From positions 2,048,001 to 2,112,000 of the forward strand of contig CAXXVS010000003.1 in NCBI GenBank assembly GCA_963674755.2: 64,000 nucleotides of DNA. The letters run 5' to 3'. Of this stretch, positions 14,190 through 24,553 are shown in pieces. Under the pieces are notes generated by a model. The model was not told the DNA's origin, did no database searches, and saw only the letters and a list, made by a program, of their open reading frames with translations. This DNA comes from Desulfobacterales bacterium. Lineage in GTDB: Bacteria; Desulfobacterota; Desulfobacteria; Desulfobacterales; UBA5852. The stretch's first letter is position 1. Every line of letters begins with the position of its first letter. The translations under genes and the position numbers were made by a program.

Positions 14190-16313
14190 TCAGGAAGGGC
14201 TGTCCAGCACCTTGCGCATGGTTTTCGCCAGATCGCTCATGACGATCGGTTTGAGGATGAAGGCCTGGATGCCAAGGCGCTTGGCCGCTTCTTCCGTGAT
14301 GGTTTCGCTGAATCCCGTGCACAGGATAATGGGCAGCTGCGGGTTGATCTTCAACAGCTCGACGGCCAGCTCCTTGCCGGTCATGCGGGGCATGGTCATG
14401 TCGGTGATCACCAGGTCGAAGGCGGCGGGATCCCGCTGAAAATGCTGCAACGCCTCGAGACTGCTCGTGCAGGCCGTCACCTGATAGCCCAGCCGCTGCA
14501 AAATCTGTCCGCTCATGTCCACCAGCATGGTTTCGTCGTCCACGAAGAGGACCCGTTCGGTACCCGAGGGCAGGGGTAATGGGTCCGGAGGCGTGTTGGC
14601 GGTGCGGCGCCGGACCTTGGGCAGGTAGATGCGAAAGGTGGTCCCCTCCCCGGGCCGGCTTGCCACATCGATGGATCCACCGTGGCTTTTGATGATGCCG
14701 TGGGCCACCGAGAGGCCCATGCCCGTACCCTCGGTGTGTTCCTTGGTGGTGAAAAACGGGTCGAAGATGCGGTCGATAATGGTGGGGGGGATGCCGTGGC
14801 CGGTATCTTCTACGGTGAGCAGCAGATAGGCATCGGCCGCCAACCCCGTCAGCCGTCGTTCCTGGATTTCGTCTTCATCGGCGTCACGCAGGGCAACGGT
14901 CAGCCGGCCGCCGCGATCGCGCATGGCGTGGCCGGCGTTCGTGCAAAGGTTCATCAGCACCTGGTGCATCTGGGTGGGGTCGCCCATGATAAAGGCGTCG
15001 GACTGGATGTCCGTGTGGATTGCGATGGTCGTGGGCAGGGAGGCCCGCAGCAGTTCGCAGGCTTCCTGAATGATGCGGTCCAGTTGGACCGGCCGCATCT
15101 CATGCTCGCTCTGCCGGCTGAAGGCCAGAATCTGCTGCACCAGGTGTTTGGCGCGCAGGCCGGCTTGCAGCACCTGTTCCATGTTGTGGCTGAGAAACGA
15201 ATCCGGGGGGGCATCTTCCATGGCCATTTCGGTAAATCCGATCACGGCGGAAAGGATGTTGTTGAAATCGTGCGCAATACCGCCGGCCAGGGTGCCCACG
15301 GCCTCCATCTTCTGGGCCTGGCGCAGTTGACGGCCCAGGGCTTTTTTCTCCTCCTCGGCCTCCATGCGTTCGGTCAGGTCGTACACCGAAATAAAGACCT
15401 TCTCCCAGCTGTCTTCGTAGCCGGGCGGAATGGAGGATTTGATCAGCAGGTGGCGGTCGTTCCCTTTCAGGGTCCGGTTGACGCACTCGATCTCAAACCG
15501 CCCCTCCTGGGCCATGGCCACCAGTTCCTGCTTCAGCACGCTATGGGCGGTTTGGGGCAGAATCCGGTGGATGTTGGCCAGGAGTTCTTCCTTGCTGCCG
15601 GCTTCATACAGGGCCAGGGTCACCCGGTTGACATCCAGGATGCGGATCATACGAATGCAGCGGGAGATCTCCTCCGGGTGGTCGCTGAAATAGCGTGTAA
15701 AATTGTCGACACCATCCGCCTTGAGACGATCGAAATGGCGTTTCAGGCGGCTGAAATTTTCCTCCCAGAGCGAGATCGGCGAGTCCTCAAACAAGGCCCG
15801 GTAGCGCAGCTCGCTGCGCTTGAGATTTTCCTCGGCCCGCAGGCGGGCACTGATGTCGCGCCCCACGATCAGGCCGAGGGCCGTGTTCTTCAACTGGGCT
15901 TTTTGGATCGAAATGTCTACCCTGGTTCGGCGACCGCTACGATCGTGGCAGAAGGTGACCGACGGCGCGGCGGGGCGCTGTTCTTCGGACGGCGGTCGGG
16001 AGTGAAAGGGGAAATCGGCAAAGAGATCCTGCTGGGGGAAGATGTCCGTCACCGACAGGCGCGTGAGGACCTCGAAGGAATAGCCGGACTGGGCGACCGC
16101 GCTGCGGTTAGCGTCCTGGATGCGGCCGTCGTTGGCATCGAACAGGAAAACCATGTCGCTGGCCTGGTCCAGCAGAAAACGGAAGCGTTCCAGCTCCTCG
16201 AGCCGCCGCTGCAGCTGGGGGTAGTAGCTTTTGCGTACAGTGCGTTCCCCGAGGCCGATGATCCGCTGGCGGGTCAATCGGTATTGGAGATCGCGGTCAG
16301 AGGGCTTGGGCAT
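14190..16313 (-). CDS. PAS-PAS hybrid sensor histidine kinase/receiver with ErcS-like N-terminus
   Basis: IIGLGERTVRKSYYPQL N-terminus; GIAHDFNN H-box; FFTTK..GTGMGL; receiver LVITDMTMP. Confidence 0.9.
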   Translation of the reverse strand: MPKPSDRDLQYRLTRQRIIGLGERTVRKSYYPQLQRRLEELERFRFLLDQASDMVFLFDANDGRIQDANRSAVAQSGYSFEVLTRLSVTDIFPQQDLFADFPFHSRPPSEEQRPAAPSVTFCHDRSGRRTRVDISIQKAQLKNTALGLIVGRDISARLRAEENLKRSELRYRALFEDSPISLWEENFSRLKRHFDRLKADGVDNFTRYFSDHPEEISRCIRMIRILDVNRVTLALYEAGSKEELLANIHRILPQTAHSVLKQELVAMAQEGRFEIECVNRTLKGNDRHLLIKSSIPPGYEDSWEKVFISVYDLTERMEAEEEKKALGRQLRQAQKMEAVGTLAGGIAHDFNNILSAVIGFTEMAMEDAPPDSFLSHNMEQVLQAGLRAKHLVQQILAFSRQSEHEMRPVQLDRIIQEACELLRASLPTTIAIHTDIQSDAFIMGDPTQMHQVLMNLCTNAGHAMRDRGGRLTVALRDADEDEIQERRLTGLAADAYLLLTVEDTGHGIPPTIIDRIFDPFFTTKEHTEGTGMGLSVAHGIIKSHGGSIDVASRPGEGTTFRIYLPKVRRRTANTPPDPLPLPSGTERVLFVDDETMLVDMSGQILQRLGYQVTACTSSLEALQHFQRDPAAFDLVITDMTMPRMTGKELAVELLKINPQLPIILCTGFSETITEEAAKRLGIQAFILKPIVMSDLAKTMRKVLDSPS

Positions 16314-17448
16314 AGACCGTCTCGATGTCGCTGATGGTGGGTGCAACGGGATTGGTCGCCATGCAGGGGTCGTCGACGGCAAGTCGCGCCAGCTGGGGGA
16401 TGTCTTCCCTGCGAATCCCCCGATCCCGGAGACGCGCGGTAATGCCGATGCAATGTCTAAACCCGGTCAGGGACGCGATGATCGTCTCGCAGGCCGCTTC
16501 ACTGGACAGGCCTTCCAGCGAAACCCCCAGGCTGTCGGCCAAGGCGGCGTAGCGCTGGCCGGATTGGGGCCAGTTAAACCGCATCACATGGTCGACCAAT
16601 AGGCTGTTGCACTCTCCGTGGGGCAGGTCGAACAACCCGCCGATGCTGTGCGCCATGGCGTGCACGGCGCCCAAACTGGCGTTGGAAAAGGCCAGGCCCG
16701 CGGCCAGGCTGCCGAACATGACCTGCCGGCGCGCTGCCATGTCGCGGGGGTGTTCGACGACTTGCGGCAGGTAGCGGAAGATGCGGCGGACGGCTTCACG
16801 GGCATGCAGGTCGGTCATCTCCGAGGCGGCATTGGAGACCAGGGCTTCCAGAGCGTGTACCAGGGCATCCATGCCTGTGCAGGCTGTCAGATAGGCATCC
16901 ATGGTGACGGTGGGCTCCGGATCCACCAGGGCCACATCGGGCACCACGCTTTTGCTGAGGATAGCGATTTTGCGTTTTTCAAAGCGGTTGCTGAGGATGG
17001 CGAATTGGGACACATCGGAGGATGTCCCGGCCGTAGTCGGGATGCAGATCAGCGGCGGACCGGGATCGTCCACCCGGTCGACACCCTCGAACTCCAGGAC
17101 ATGGCGACGGTTGGTATGGACGATGCCGATGGCCTTGGCGCAATCCATGGGGCTGCCCCCGCCCACCGCCAGAATAACATCGCACCCTTCCCGCTCGTAA
17201 CGTTCCGCGCCGGCCATGACCTCCTCGGCCCGCGGGTTGGGGCTGACCTCGGTGAACATCGCCCACTCGAGGGCGGCGGCCTCGAGGCAGCGGAGGACGG
17301 CCTGGGCCCAGCCGGCCTGGACGACACCCGGGTCTGATACCAGAAATACCTTGCTGGCGCCGAGGTTACGGGCATAGCGGCCCGCCAGCTGCAAGGCGCC
17401 GGACCCGAAAACGATTTCCGGCGCCACGAATTTACGCAAATTTTCCAT
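16297..17448 (-). CDS. ercA: Iron-containing alcohol dehydrogenase family, ErcA-like
   Basis: LRKFVAPEIVFG, GGGSPMD, PTTAGTSSDVSQF, DALVH, HAMAHS..LPHGECN; overlaps the kinase start. Confidence 0.85.
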   Translation of the reverse strand: MENLRKFVAPEIVFGSGALQLAGRYARNLGASKVFLVSDPGVVQAGWAQAVLRCLEAAALEWAMFTEVSPNPRAEEVMAGAERYEREGCDVILAVGGGSPMDCAKAIGIVHTNRRHVLEFEGVDRVDDPGPPLICIPTTAGTSSDVSQFAILSNRFEKRKIAILSKSVVPDVALVDPEPTVTMDAYLTACTGMDALVHALEALVSNAASEMTDLHAREAVRRIFRYLPQVVEHPRDMAARRQVMFGSLAAGLAFSNASLGAVHAMAHSIGGLFDLPHGECNSLLVDHVMRFNWPQSGQRYAALADSLGVSLEGLSSEAACETIIASLTGFRHCIGITARLRDRGIRREDIPQLARLAVDDPCMATNPVAPTISDIETVYAQAL

Positions 17449-17739
17449 TTCCGAAATCCATTGGGGCGTCCTGCAGGGAGGCCGGCCCGGAAGGAGGGGG
17501 ACACGCTGTTGCCGCAGGCCGCCATTCCGTTTTTCATCGGATGCTAATGCCACCCTAATGAGCAAGCGGTCAAATGTCAATCGGGCGGGCGCGGATCCGG
17601 CCGGCCGCGCAGCGTGTGGTGGGCTTAGGGAGGGTACGATCTAACCGGGGGAACAATTCTTGGCCGCAACGGCTTGACTTTGGCCAACTATTCATTACTT
17701 TTTTATATAACTTGGCGATCTTTATCGAAAGGATGATTT

Positions 17740-17913
17740 ATGGATACACAGTCTAATCTCGGTAAACGGGTTAAGTTTACGGTCGACGCTTTCTGGATCG
17801 GTTTGGTGGAAGGCACCGTCGTCAAAGAGTTCAAGAACGGTAAAGTGGCCGTCAAAGTGGATCGGCCCAACAAAGTATTTCATGTCAAGGGCAGTGATGT
17901 CACACACATATGA
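17740..17913 (+). CDS. Unannotated 57-aa beta-rich (SH3/KOW-like) small protein
   Basis: GAAAGGA RBS; MDTQSNLGKRVKFTVDAFWIGLVEGTVVKEFKNGKVAVKVDRPNKVFHVKGSDVTHI; stop overlaps the recombinase ATG (ATGA). Confidence 0.75.
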   Translation: MDTQSNLGKRVKFTVDAFWIGLVEGTVVKEFKNGKVAVKVDRPNKVFHVKGSDVTHI

Positions 17914-18503
17914 CCGGTGACAACCGTCCGCGCAAGGGGGCCCGCATCAAAGTGGAGCCCATTCGGTATCTGGCGGACATCAAACGCATCAAAAACTTTC
18001 TGATGCAACGCCCCCGCGATCTCGCTCTCTTCACGCTGGGTATCAACTCTCCTTTACGGGTGTCCGATCTGCTTGGGCTGACCTTTGGTCAGGTAGCGGA
18101 TTTGGCGCCGGGCGATTTCCTGAGCATTCATGAAAAACGTACCGGCCGACGCCTCAAGACAGGCTTCAATCATGTCTGCTGTGCGGCGGTCGCCAATCTG
18201 GTGGTGAGTTTGCCGTCCAGGCCCGATCCGGCATGCGCCCTTTTTGCGAGCCGGCGGGGCGACGTTTTGCTGCCATCCTCGGTGCACCGTTTGGTCAAAT
18301 CATGGTGCAAGGGCATCGGACTGGAAGGCAATTACGGCGCCAATACGCTTCGGAAAACCTGGGGCTATCACCAGTTCGCAACCTTCGGTACGGATCTGGC
18401 CCGCTTGAGGTCCTATTTCCATCACCCCACCCGTCGGCAAACCCTCGATTATCTTTGTCTCGTGCCGGAAGATTTCAAAAGCATTTTCGACCATGAATTG
18501 TGA
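17910..18503 (+). CDS. Tyrosine recombinase/integrase, catalytic domain only
   Basis: RDLALFTLGINSPLRVSDL (R), EKRTG (K), ANTLRKTWGY (HxxR with H>N), FHH, TLDYL (Y). Confidence 0.88.
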   Translation: MTGDNRPRKGARIKVEPIRYLADIKRIKNFLMQRPRDLALFTLGINSPLRVSDLLGLTFGQVADLAPGDFLSIHEKRTGRRLKTGFNHVCCAAVANLVVSLPSRPDPACALFASRRGDVLLPSSVHRLVKSWCKGIGLEGNYGANTLRKTWGYHQFATFGTDLARLRSYFHHPTRRQTLDYLCLVPEDFKSIFDHEL

Positions 18504-18795: not shown

Positions 18796-19374
18796 ATGCA
18801 CAGACAATGGGAGATCATGGCCACACTCATTTGCATCGTCTTGATGCTGACCACCGGCGGCTGCCAGAAAACCGTCATCGGTTCCGGGGAGGCCATGCGC
18901 GGTCCCGGCCCGGGTGCCGGCGCGGCAGGCTCCGGTGAAACGGGCACCATGGGCGAGGAGGACTTGTCCGGGCAGTCCCGGATTGACGAGGGACCCGTGG
19001 ACGAGATCGTTACGGCCGATGGAACCGTCATGAACCGCGAGCGCTTTATCAACGAGGATATCTTTTTCGAGTTCGACAGTTCGACCCTCAGCCCCCAAGC
19101 CCAGGCCATATTGAAAGCCAAGGCCGAATGGATGGCACGCAATCCCCATTTGAACATCGTCATCGAAGGCCATTGCGACAATCGGGGTACCACGGAGTAT
19201 AACCTGGCGCTGGGTGAGCGGCGTGCCGAGAGCGTCAAACGCTATCTTGAGGATCTGGGAGTTTCCGGGAGTCGGATCAGAACCATCAGTTACGGCGAAG
19301 AGCGGCCGCTTGTCAAGGGGGACAATGAAGACGCCTGGGCCAAGAACAGACGCGCCCATTTCGAGTTTGACTAG
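18796..19374 (+). CDS. pal: Peptidoglycan-associated lipoprotein (OmpA family)
   Basis: Lipobox [54 protein letters not shown]. Confidence 0.92.
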
Positions 19375-22492: not shown

Positions 22493-23575
22493 ATGACGTT
22501 AGCGAAGCTTAAAGGGTGGCTGCGGCGCATTGCGACGGTGGAAGGCCGGGAAAAGATCGCCGACAGTCCTGATACCCCCGGCCAGCCGGTCCGGGCCGAA
22601 GCGGAGCGATCCCGTTTGGTCGGCCAATCCCCTGATCGTCATCAGGCTGTTTCCGGAAAGCCGCGTCCCCCGGCCGGCAAACAGACGGCTGTTCAGCCTG
22701 CGGCTTCAAAAGCCCGTGTACGACGGACGACCCGGCAGGGCATCCCGATTTTAAACCCGGATGAAGACCTGGCACATCATTTCCTGGCCCGTGCGGACGT
22801 GCCGGAGGGGGCGCCGTCGCAGAACGCGTCCGGTCGCGAGGCCCCGGAGGGCACGGAGCGCTCCGGCCCGGCGGTCCGGCACCATGCCACCAAGGGGCGC
22901 AGGAAGAGGTCATACCGCAACCGGGCGGGGATCCGCCAACTGGACGCGCAGCGCGATCTTAGCGACTATTTTCTGCCCGCCGCGTCGGAGGAAAGCACCG
23001 CCGCCCGGCAGCCCGCCTTGAAAACGGAGAACCCTGCTCCGACGAAGATCGGACGGAGACCCAAGGTTGCCGCTGAGACCGATCGACACGGCATCCCGCG
23101 TCTGGACGATCAGACCGATTTACGCCGCTTTTTCGAAACGGCATTGGAAGACGAAGCGATTGCGGAAGATCAAGAACTGGGTGAAGTCTTCCGGGCTTCT
23201 CTGGATCACGATGCCCAGCGCCTGATGAAGAAAAAGACAGGCGGATTTTTTGCGCCCCGCCAGCTATCCCTCAAAGAAAAACTCCGCCGCTATCCCGCCC
23301 CCCAGGCCCAGCTGGATCTCCACGGCGATACGGCGCTCATCGCCCAACAGCGGGCCGACAGCTTCCTCCGAAAGGCCGGCGCGACTGGGACCCTGACCGT
23401 ACGCATCATCGTGGGCAAGGGCCTGCACTCCGAAGACGGCGCCGTGCTGCCCGACGTGATCGAAGATCTTCTGGTGGCCCTGAAACGCGACGGCCGGGTG
23501 CTGACCTTCCGCTGGGATAAAGGCCTCAAGCGCAAGAGCGGGGCAGTCATCGTTTATCTGGAACCGCCGTTTTAG
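22493..23575 (+). CDS. Smr/MutS domain protein with long repeat-containing N-terminus
   Basis: LDLHG, IIVGKGLHS, SGAVIVYL. Confidence 0.85.
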   Translation: MTLAKLKGWLRRIATVEGREKIADSPDTPGQPVRAEAERSRLVGQSPDRHQAVSGKPRPPAGKQTAVQPAASKARVRRTTRQGIPILNPDEDLAHHFLARADVPEGAPSQNASGREAPEGTERSGPAVRHHATKGRRKRSYRNRAGIRQLDAQRDLSDYFLPAASEESTAARQPALKTENPAPTKIGRRPKVAAETDRHGIPRLDDQTDLRRFFETALEDEAIAEDQELGEVFRASLDHDAQRLMKKKTGGFFAPRQLSLKEKLRRYPAPQAQLDLHGDTALIAQQRADSFLRKAGATGTLTVRIIVGKGLHSEDGAVLPDVIEDLLVALKRDGRVLTFRWDKGLKRKSGAVIVYLEPPF

Positions 23576-23896: not shown

Positions 23897-24553
23897 ATGC
23901 GAAGGTGGATTGTTCTAACGGCGGTATTTTTAGTGGTGGTTTGCAGTGGGTTGGCGCAAGCTTTAACGCTGTCAGAGGATGCCCAGCTCAATATTATCAA
24001 AGAGGGTTCCTACTGGACGCAATTGCATTACAATCTTGACGGAAATGACATGACTGCCGATTCAGGGCGGTTTCATACCTTTGTGACGCAATACGGCAAG
24101 ACCATCGACACCTATTCCTATTGTATTGATCCCGAACAGGTCTTTTACTGGGACACACCCTTCGAGGTTGATTTAAAATCGTCGAATCCGGATTACATGG
24201 CGGCGGCATGGCTGGTATACAACTTCGATCCTTTCGACGGTGTGAATAAATTGGCGGGTGACAATATAGATGTGATAGCAGCCCTGCAGATAGCCGTTTG
24301 GGAAAGTGTACTTCCAGGGAGATTCAGCTATAACTATGGAAACAACGATGCCGTTGACGACTTGTACACTTCCATGATGGGTGCACTCTCAAAAGCCGAG
24401 TATTCGGGTATCCAGGGTCAGTATGCTGCTGCCGTTAGCGGGACCATGCAGGATCAGCTGGTGGCTGCTCCGGTGCCCGAACCCGCCACCATGCTTCTCA
24501 TGGGTATCGGCCTCTTGGGGCTGGGGGTGGTCGGCCGCAAGCGGCTCAAATAA
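23897..24553 (+). CDS. PEP-CTERM sorting domain protein, probable thioester domain
   Basis: Signal peptide; PVPEPATMLLMGIGLLGLGVVGRKRLK; YSYCIDP and ALQIAVWE motifs; GGAGG RBS. Confidence 0.92.
   Translation: MRRWIVLTAVFLVVVCSGLAQALTLSEDAQLNIIKEGSYWTQLHYNLDGNDMTADSGRFHTFVTQYGKTIDTYSYCIDPEQVFYWDTPFEVDLKSSNPDYMAAAWLVYNFDPFDGVNKLAGDNIDVIAALQIAVWESVLPGRFSYNYGNNDAVDDLYTSMMGALSKAEYSGIQGQYAAAVSGTMQDQLVAAPVPEPATMLLMGIGLLGLGVVGRKRLK

Follow-up and report, generated by a model that had tools for sequence, protein, structure and literature searches.

The two genes studied here overlap by four bases and lie between ercA and pal on the chromosome of a Desulfobacterales bacterium from sediment. They were analysed within a stretch of 64,000 nucleotides, the whole of which we call the window, and the features below are given in its coordinates.

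14190-16382, minus strand (as ercA): PAS hybrid sensor kinase, next after ercA
16297..17448, minus strand: ercA, alcohol dehydrogenase-like regulatory protein (NF041833, 597 bits against a cutoff of 550; synteny)
17575..17580, minus strand: TTGACA-like hexamer, candidate -35 of a putative divergent ercA promoter
17655..17664, plus strand: what remains of the right arm of O1, another wide repeat lying further upstream (from comparison of clade loci)
17674..17679, plus strand: -35 hexamer TTGACT, conserved in aligned promoters
17683..17716, plus strand: 34-bp inverted repeat GCCAACTATT-N14-ATAACTTGGC, putative operator (site II) of the recombinase
17696..17701, plus strand: -10 hexamer TACTTT, N16 after the -35 and within the operator spacer
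17728..17733, plus strand: microprotein RBS AAAGGA (SD-like 4-mer in 44/45 loci)
17740..17913, plus strand: 57-aa SH3/Tudor/KOW-like beta-barrel microprotein (sequence search, model, codon statistics)
17910..17913, plus strand: ATGA stop/start overlap of microprotein and recombinase, four bases
17910..18503, plus strand: 197-aa catalytic-domain-only tyrosine recombinase homologue (PF00589, phrog_216, model)
18796..19374, plus strand: pal, peptidoglycan-associated lipoprotein, conserved downstream neighbour (TIGR02802 above cutoff; synteny)

The divergent neighbour ercA belongs to the conserved context of this module and lies outside the module itself, and with the sensor kinase (together 14190-17448, minus strand) it resembles the Pseudomonas ErcA-ErcS ethanol-sensing pair, with a presumed likeness to ErcS. 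As an earlier sequence-only reading of this DNA had stated, no phage or IS genes occur among the flanking genes scanned; the same genes place the locus outside any defence island (no PADLOC match), Rfam gave no match, and the window's single tRNA is 45 kb off. Repeats around the module such as 17653-17675 with 18479-18501 were dismissed as chance matches. The coordinates of the 57-aa frame with its RBS and ATGA overlap, called in that reading, were confirmed, and the proposed promoter TTGACT-N16-TACTTT is present with its geometry retained in aligned orthologous promoters, though a consensus promoter scanner gave no call for it. Across 38 sites the T, A and final T columns of the -10 are invariant or almost so, and the -35 is also kept, as TTGACA, in two promoters that precede no recombinase. 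The 34-bp repeat, which the earlier reading did not contain, spans the -10 and the predicted start site. A minus-strand TTGACA-like hexamer lies upstream in 34/40 loci at variable distance, and the upstream repeat O1 is whole in 14/40 clade loci and not whole in the window.

Judged by its codon statistics and relatives, the 57-aa frame is a real conserved gene. A protein search with the microprotein gave 79 protein clusters, itself included, among 80 candidates, with the full-length clusters at 69-96% identity. Median dN/dS was 0.10 over 43 orthologue pairs with the window gene (mean pS 0.64, mean pN 0.12, synonymous sites near saturation), and variability at the three codon positions was 0.105, 0.089 and 0.365, the third being about four times the first or second. 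Contigs from three metatranscriptome assemblies cover the gene, contigs from which strand, level and transcript unity are not readable; one of them runs without mismatch from 17756 to 18038, across the junction with the recombinase, and two further ones start at 17720 and 17727. The interval 17596-17682 had no RNA-contig cover in three RNA runs, which is a weak hint only.

The microprotein is basic (10 K/R, 6 D/E), and the alternating beta-strand pattern noticed earlier reappears in its AlphaFold model (pLDDT 77) as a five-stranded SH3-like barrel with a short helix ahead of the last strand, an assignment shared by the model and the fold searches. Its best fold match was 6kco (VIA Z 8.2, rmsd 2.0, 53 aligned), Tudor matches reached Z 8.0, and Foldseek gave a TM of about 0.7. 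Tudor, PWWP and KOW domains match the model about equally well, and among the small SH3-like barrels that have this fold in common with it (Tudor, PWWP, KOW, NdhS, DUF1918) no single match stands out; the modelled SH3-like fold alone gives the microprotein no function. No match was found in Pfam, NCBIfam or PDB sequences, named Atlas clusters scored at most 0.88, and a full profile search for distant relatives returned 4 matches (two belong to the microprotein's own family, and the others are a repeat protein and, at E 2e-5, a protein of 58 aa). By these searches the microprotein is a new conserved family, one longer form of which has 119 aa. A viral match spans residues 22-45 only; a viral 96-aa ORF (L044:4923-5213) and the unplaced 58-aa P0202 have a KNGKVAV hairpin in common with the microprotein, and a phage origin of the fold is, on this weak sequence likeness, possible.

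Evaluating its range, we found the microprotein to be confined, as far as sequence searches reach, to one Desulfobacterales family. Among 401 genomes of the order it is present in its own genome and in 11/12 other genomes of the family, while a single weak match (E 0.007) came from the 388 genomes outside the family. A scan of 185,579 species genomes yielded 13 loci, whose titles read Desulfobacterales, Desulfobacteraceae or delta proteobacterium, and metagenomes added 39 more. From these 52 loci, 5 near-duplicates and 2 loci cut by contig ends were removed, and the recombinase follows at the four-base overlap in 43 of the 45 evaluable loci, such that the conservation and linkage by which the sequence-only reading had proposed to check its ORF are both found. 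In one of the 43 (L129), mutation or assembly error has apparently frameshifted the recombinase, to 168 aa, leaving operator and microprotein intact. The 13 genome loci have the common order ercA - microprotein - (recombinase) - pal, except L043, where the contig stops within the microprotein gene. An SD-like 4-mer precedes 44/45 microprotein starts versus 0/44 recombinase starts; because the recombinase start has no SD of its own and sits in the ATGA overlap, we infer that its translation is coupled to that of the microprotein.

Two loci, L039 and L041, possess the microprotein and no recombinase. Their microproteins are 68% identical to that of the window, compared with 68-84% in three recombinase-bearing genomes, and keep the same core motifs; because the microprotein is equally conserved in these two genomes, it is probably cargo of the module rather than a partner of the recombinase. 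On an unstarred branch with 93/94 support, g3, the genus without the recombinase, groups as sister of both other genera, so gain and loss of the recombinase are equally parsimonious there. Inside the clade the recombinase tree agrees with RpoB, and the gene appears, from these trees, to be vertically inherited. No microprotein homologue was found at 72 other loci of the recombinase family, and in 12 genomes from other families the region upstream of ercA contains neither gene; G009 and G016, which have neither gene, are uninformative because a close ercA match is missing too.

The downstream gene belongs to the tyrosine recombinase superfamily by sequence and by fold: it matches PF00589 above cutoff over residues 29-181 and also phrog_216, and its model aligns with XerA in Foldseek (E 3.7e-8, TM 0.73). 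Neither the extent of the Pfam match nor the model contains a core-binding domain, which bears out the core-binding part of the earlier description of a minimal enzyme lacking core- and arm-binding domains; the build is nothing special to the locus, as the four plasmid homologues examined for length have 183-199 aa, and by sequence comparison a catalytic-domain-only protein is the family trait. FimB and FimE, the invertases of about 200 aa, likewise have no core-binding domain and resemble the window recombinase in size, but it matches PRK09871 only weakly (24.6 bits against a cutoff of 222), outside the FimB/FimE family, and no invertible element or inverted partner site was found. The IntDes subgroup (Smyshlyaev 2021) is described in the accessible part of the source by an arm-binding domain, a shifted Arg I and His changed to Tyr, a description that the window recombinase does not fit (PMC8138268). 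For IntXO, the accessible text states no protein size (PMC5567495).

The active site of the window recombinase reads R-R-N-R-H-Y rather than the complete R-K-H-R-H/W-Y. It keeps R50, R148, H172 and Y181, and is changed from Lys to Arg at 77 (18138-18140) and from His to Asn at 145 (18342-18344). Among 37 full clade genes, R148, H172 and Y181 are kept in all 37 and R50 in 36 (His in one); N145 is present in 36/37 (Thr in one), which upholds the HxxR to NxxR change noted earlier. The earlier statement that R, K, R, H and Y remain holds for the two arginines, the histidine and the tyrosine and fails for the lysine: column 77 is Arg in 37/37 clade genes, is Lys in 59/68 other family members and corresponds in alignment to the lysine in the GKG of two XerA chains, and the neighbouring K76 is variable (K in 20, Q in 11, N in 3, other in 3 of the 37). 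With column 77 Arg throughout the clade and H145 replaced, two catalytic positions are altered, not one. Both substitutions are conservative in kind, which together with the four kept residues speaks against a loss of activity; the recombinase is under purifying selection (median dN/dS 0.13, 36 pairs), and the substitutions themselves suggest that recombination activity has probably been lost in the clade. Taken with linkage, synteny and selection on both genes, they agree with the proposal of a two-gene domesticated unit.

The window recombinase belongs directly to the PF00589/phrog_216 'site-specific integrases', short proteins (about 180-200 aa) encoded on plasmids, phages and islands, a subfamily that we take to be the one labelled cd01192 in CDD and for which our literature search found no characterising paper. 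It is 36-53% identical to full-length members in the order and up to 46% identical to plasmid proteins, and related proteins occur patchily (82/401 genomes of the order), with matches to 1111 records from plasmids and 160 from phages. In the upstream sequences of 80 full-length members we found two inverted repeats with common arms, namely a 12-6-12 site, usually 150-210 bp from the gene, and a wider repeat over the promoter. The 6-bp-spacer site is the probable recombination (core) site of intact members and the wider repeat a probable autoregulatory site in relatives. The spacer spectrum of 50 intact members has one peak at 6, with 25 loci, and another at 17, with 12. Intact short integrases have R-K-H-R-H-Y and often the core site 150-210 bp upstream, those of plasmids share the promoter-overlapping repeat geometry of the clade, and none has the microprotein.

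The upstream core site was detected in 31/50 intact members (19/50 being without a detectable one), in 2/18 other degenerate members and in 0/12 clade loci, counts for which 20 of the same sites had served to train the matrix, thresholds were fixed after the data had been seen and L079 was scored by hand. With only 2 independent pairs on supported branches, phylogenetic contrasts between core site and catalysis are without power. Outside the training set, 3/4 plasmid homologues have a core site at -162 to -171. A CCAA-armed 12-6-12 match at 8/48 loci was rejected, as in 6 of them it is formed where two wide repeats abut and spans 20 bp instead of 24 bp. Of 106 listed neighbouring ORFs 63 were scanned, among them 6 around a paralogue in the window's own genome: beside 14 intact members there are IS66, IS91, integrases, toxin-antitoxin genes, Fic, PIN, HEPN and restriction helicases, and beside 7 degenerate members the Pfam matches are solely housekeeping or regulatory. 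The paralogue itself (L118 = G000:C2:1280000-1295000) has an intact active site with no site detected upstream, and lies in an island of lower GC with DarT, an SNF2 helicase, DUF932, a D5-like primase and an integrase.

The wide promoter repeat co-occurs with the recombinase, being present in 35/36 recombinase-bearing loci and both contig-cut loci and in 0/2 recombinase-less loci, where it is missing though -35, -10 and RBS are kept. The sole exception, L035 (the same gene as L008), carries R50H and now has GAT/ATC-type arms in its promoter repeat with a GCC-armed copy left upstream, which may represent either decay or a specificity shift. The strict repeat pattern occurs once each in 7/17 family genomes, always at the module promoter; a two-mismatch scan gave extra matches no commoner than a reversed-pattern control, and a matrix scan of the own genome returned its own promoter alone at 34-bp spacing. 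Candidate regulon sites were rejected, including an intergenic 35-bp match (G000:C3:246123-246161, 27.9 bits) that a DNA search of 16 family genomes found unconserved and four other own-genome matches for which inspection gave no support, three of them within coding sequence. Genome scans with repeat pattern and matrix found no target beyond the own promoter.

Ser123 of the window recombinase (18276-18278) covaries with the GCC arms. In the 57 loci for which a site was called, S or G stands at position 123 in 16/16 with a CC arm and in 0/41 without, and by mutual information no other of the 197 columns scores higher (z 8.9, counting the clade as a single row). Residue 123 and arm type each change 5 times on the tree, with only 1 independent pair on starred branches, too few for a contrast with power; among plasmids outside the sample the strict CC rule held in 2/3, L158 (Ser with GTC arms) fitting a looser rule only. 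In the model the residue opens helix 122-135, where it aligns to Gln in XerD, and the matching XerD helix presumably sets dif specificity through its helix-J residues. On this covariation, arm specificity maps to residue 123 in the recombinase's own helix. The sequence-only reading had offered two roles: that the microprotein supplies specificity or directionality, and that the recombinase fold is repurposed as a DNA-binding regulator. The first finds no support in view of this mapping, of the 72 other loci without a homologue and of the 68% identical microproteins of recombinase-less genomes; operator co-occurrence and arm covariation argue for the second.

We lean, by a small measure, towards a recombinase that has been domesticated, probably recombines no longer and represses its own operon in the manner of phage MrpR/SroF. 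A small plasmid- or island-type tyrosine recombinase would have become fixed between ercA and pal on the chromosome of one Desulfobacterales lineage, which would have kept the promoter repeat but no longer the core site or two of the active-site residues. The recombinase would bind the two GCC arms via its catalytic-domain helix and repress the microprotein-recombinase transcript, and, made solely by coupling to the microprotein, would exert negative-feedback dose control on it, possibly reaching the divergent ercA promoter too. The microprotein would be the regulated cargo, with a conserved partner of its own, nucleic acid or protein. The main gap in this repressor reading is that a single visible target, the own promoter, leaves the benefit of retention unaccounted for.

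MrpR/YopR (SroF), the master repressor of SPbeta-like phages, is a precedent for a tyrosine-recombinase fold serving as a sequence-specific repressor with active-site losses and the Tyr kept, and its chains 8bpz and 8a0a are among the fold matches of the window recombinase. In the accessible part of the source, MrpR has lost recombination and represses, its Y304F variant is destabilised, and it comprises core-binding and catalytic domains in about 320 aa (PMC10516654), whereas the window protein is a catalytic domain of 197 aa. In both, a small protein gene lies near the recombinase-fold gene. MrpR binds many phage sites in an SPbeta-like prophage and SroF acts as a monomer, whereas the clade recombinase has one predicted, palindromic, chromosomal site beside housekeeping genes; it would work like MrpR/SroF, yet is not a member.

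Small partners of such proteins are described in the parts of two sources available to us, namely the SroF antirepressor Sar, an acidic, LexA-controlled DNA-mimic alpha/beta dimer (bioRxiv 10.1101/2025.11.27.690993), and MpsB, a helical, core-binding-like protein of 98 aa from Salmonella genomic island 1 that is encoded downstream of mpsA on a mobilisable island, in a bicistronic pair of recombinase-related and small gene as here (PMC6414798). By analogy with SroF-Sar or MpsA-MpsB, the microprotein could be a direct partner of the recombinase, acting as co-repressor, antirepressor or core-binding-domain substitute; the four-base overlap and the RNA contigs bridging the junction also speak for this. 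We nevertheless consider this unlikely: it is net basic and all-beta where Sar is acidic and MpsB helical, shares the operon of the recombinase unlike Sar, and is encoded upstream, at a stable locus, unlike mpsB; it also persists with its core motifs where the recombinase is missing and has no homologue at the 72 other family loci. A complex prediction for the two proteins scored 0.00 in two runs and is not counted as evidence.

Quite unlikely, in turn, is an enzyme that still recombines or nicks, slowly or conditionally, at a degenerate core-like sub-site in the promoter repeat or at an unrecognised site. Four of the six active-site residues, the Tyr included, are nearly invariant, natural His substitutions occur in active recombinases, and a 6-bp-spacer sub-match inside the wide repeat, which we did not count as a core site, reaches at least 14 in 4/12 clade loci (15.1 in the window). 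However, no partner site was found in the genome, orientation and neighbours are constant at the 11 recombinase-bearing genome loci, RNA contigs from four runs gave no joint within the module (a weak indication, from contigs only), and H-R-H-Y is kept also in a sister clade that has lost Arg I. Least probable is a decoy that occupies the GCC-armed core sites of incoming plasmids and islands and blocks their resolution, with autoregulation setting its dose and the microprotein a bystander: intact members with the same arms exist in the order (L015, L021, L076, L116) and purifying selection would be accounted for without a regulon, but the idea is pure inference, with neither a PADLOC match nor a defence island at the locus.

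The repressor reading has parallels elsewhere in the family. In a separate clade of 12 members, Arg I and/or Lys has been lost and there is no core site, with the promoter site mostly kept; its members (L016-L018, L077, L080-L083, L085-L088) have no microprotein, and those scanned lie beside housekeeping genes. Three proteins of 627-640 aa carry a recombinase domain with altered active site ahead of PAS-PAS-LuxR, and three of 381-407 aa carry a truncated, Tyr-less recombinase fragment ahead of GntR-FCD.

L019:178-2100, minus strand: PAS-PAS-LuxR fusion (Pfam)
L089:2494-4377, plus strand: PAS-PAS-LuxR fusion (inspection)
L103:1596-3518, plus strand: PAS-PAS-LuxR fusion (inspection)
L025:67-1212: GntR-FCD fusion
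L026:775-1953, minus strand: GntR-FCD fusion
L027:29-1252: GntR-FCD fusion

The second degenerate clade and the fusions to PAS-LuxR and GntR suggest, from their sequences, that the family has been recruited into regulation more than once. Tentatively, and as a rather doubtful generalisation, catalytic-domain-only tyrosine recombinases of Desulfobacterales may have given rise repeatedly to chromosomal transcription factors, in which the autoregulatory site is kept, core site and catalysis have been lost independently twice, fusions have formed, arm specificity is set by one helix residue, and the factor here controls, and may be modulated by, a new SH3 microprotein. Within one family, steps of domestication are visible, from intact two-site members beside mobile genes to degenerate one-site members beside housekeeping genes and regulator fusions. 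A predicted operator with a one-residue specificity rule makes the model directly testable, and for short plasmid 'integrases', a common class, the analysis predicts how the sites are laid out. The operon is real, lineage-restricted and apparently undescribed: our literature search, which covered few subscription papers, found no description of it, of the subfamily's two-site layout or of the regulator fusions, and no chromosomal, catalytic-domain-only recombinase-derived repressor, the known cases coming from SPbeta-like phages.

Some further observations concern the surroundings of these loci. At L089 a perfect 6-bp-spacer repeat stands directly before the start. A Smr-domain gene lies 4 kb from the window recombinase (22493-23575) and another (L081:1348-2388) adjoins the second degenerate clade, which may be coincidence. 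Further along the window, a stretch of lower GC encodes, at 23897-24553, a PEP-CTERM protein that matches a thioester domain weakly.
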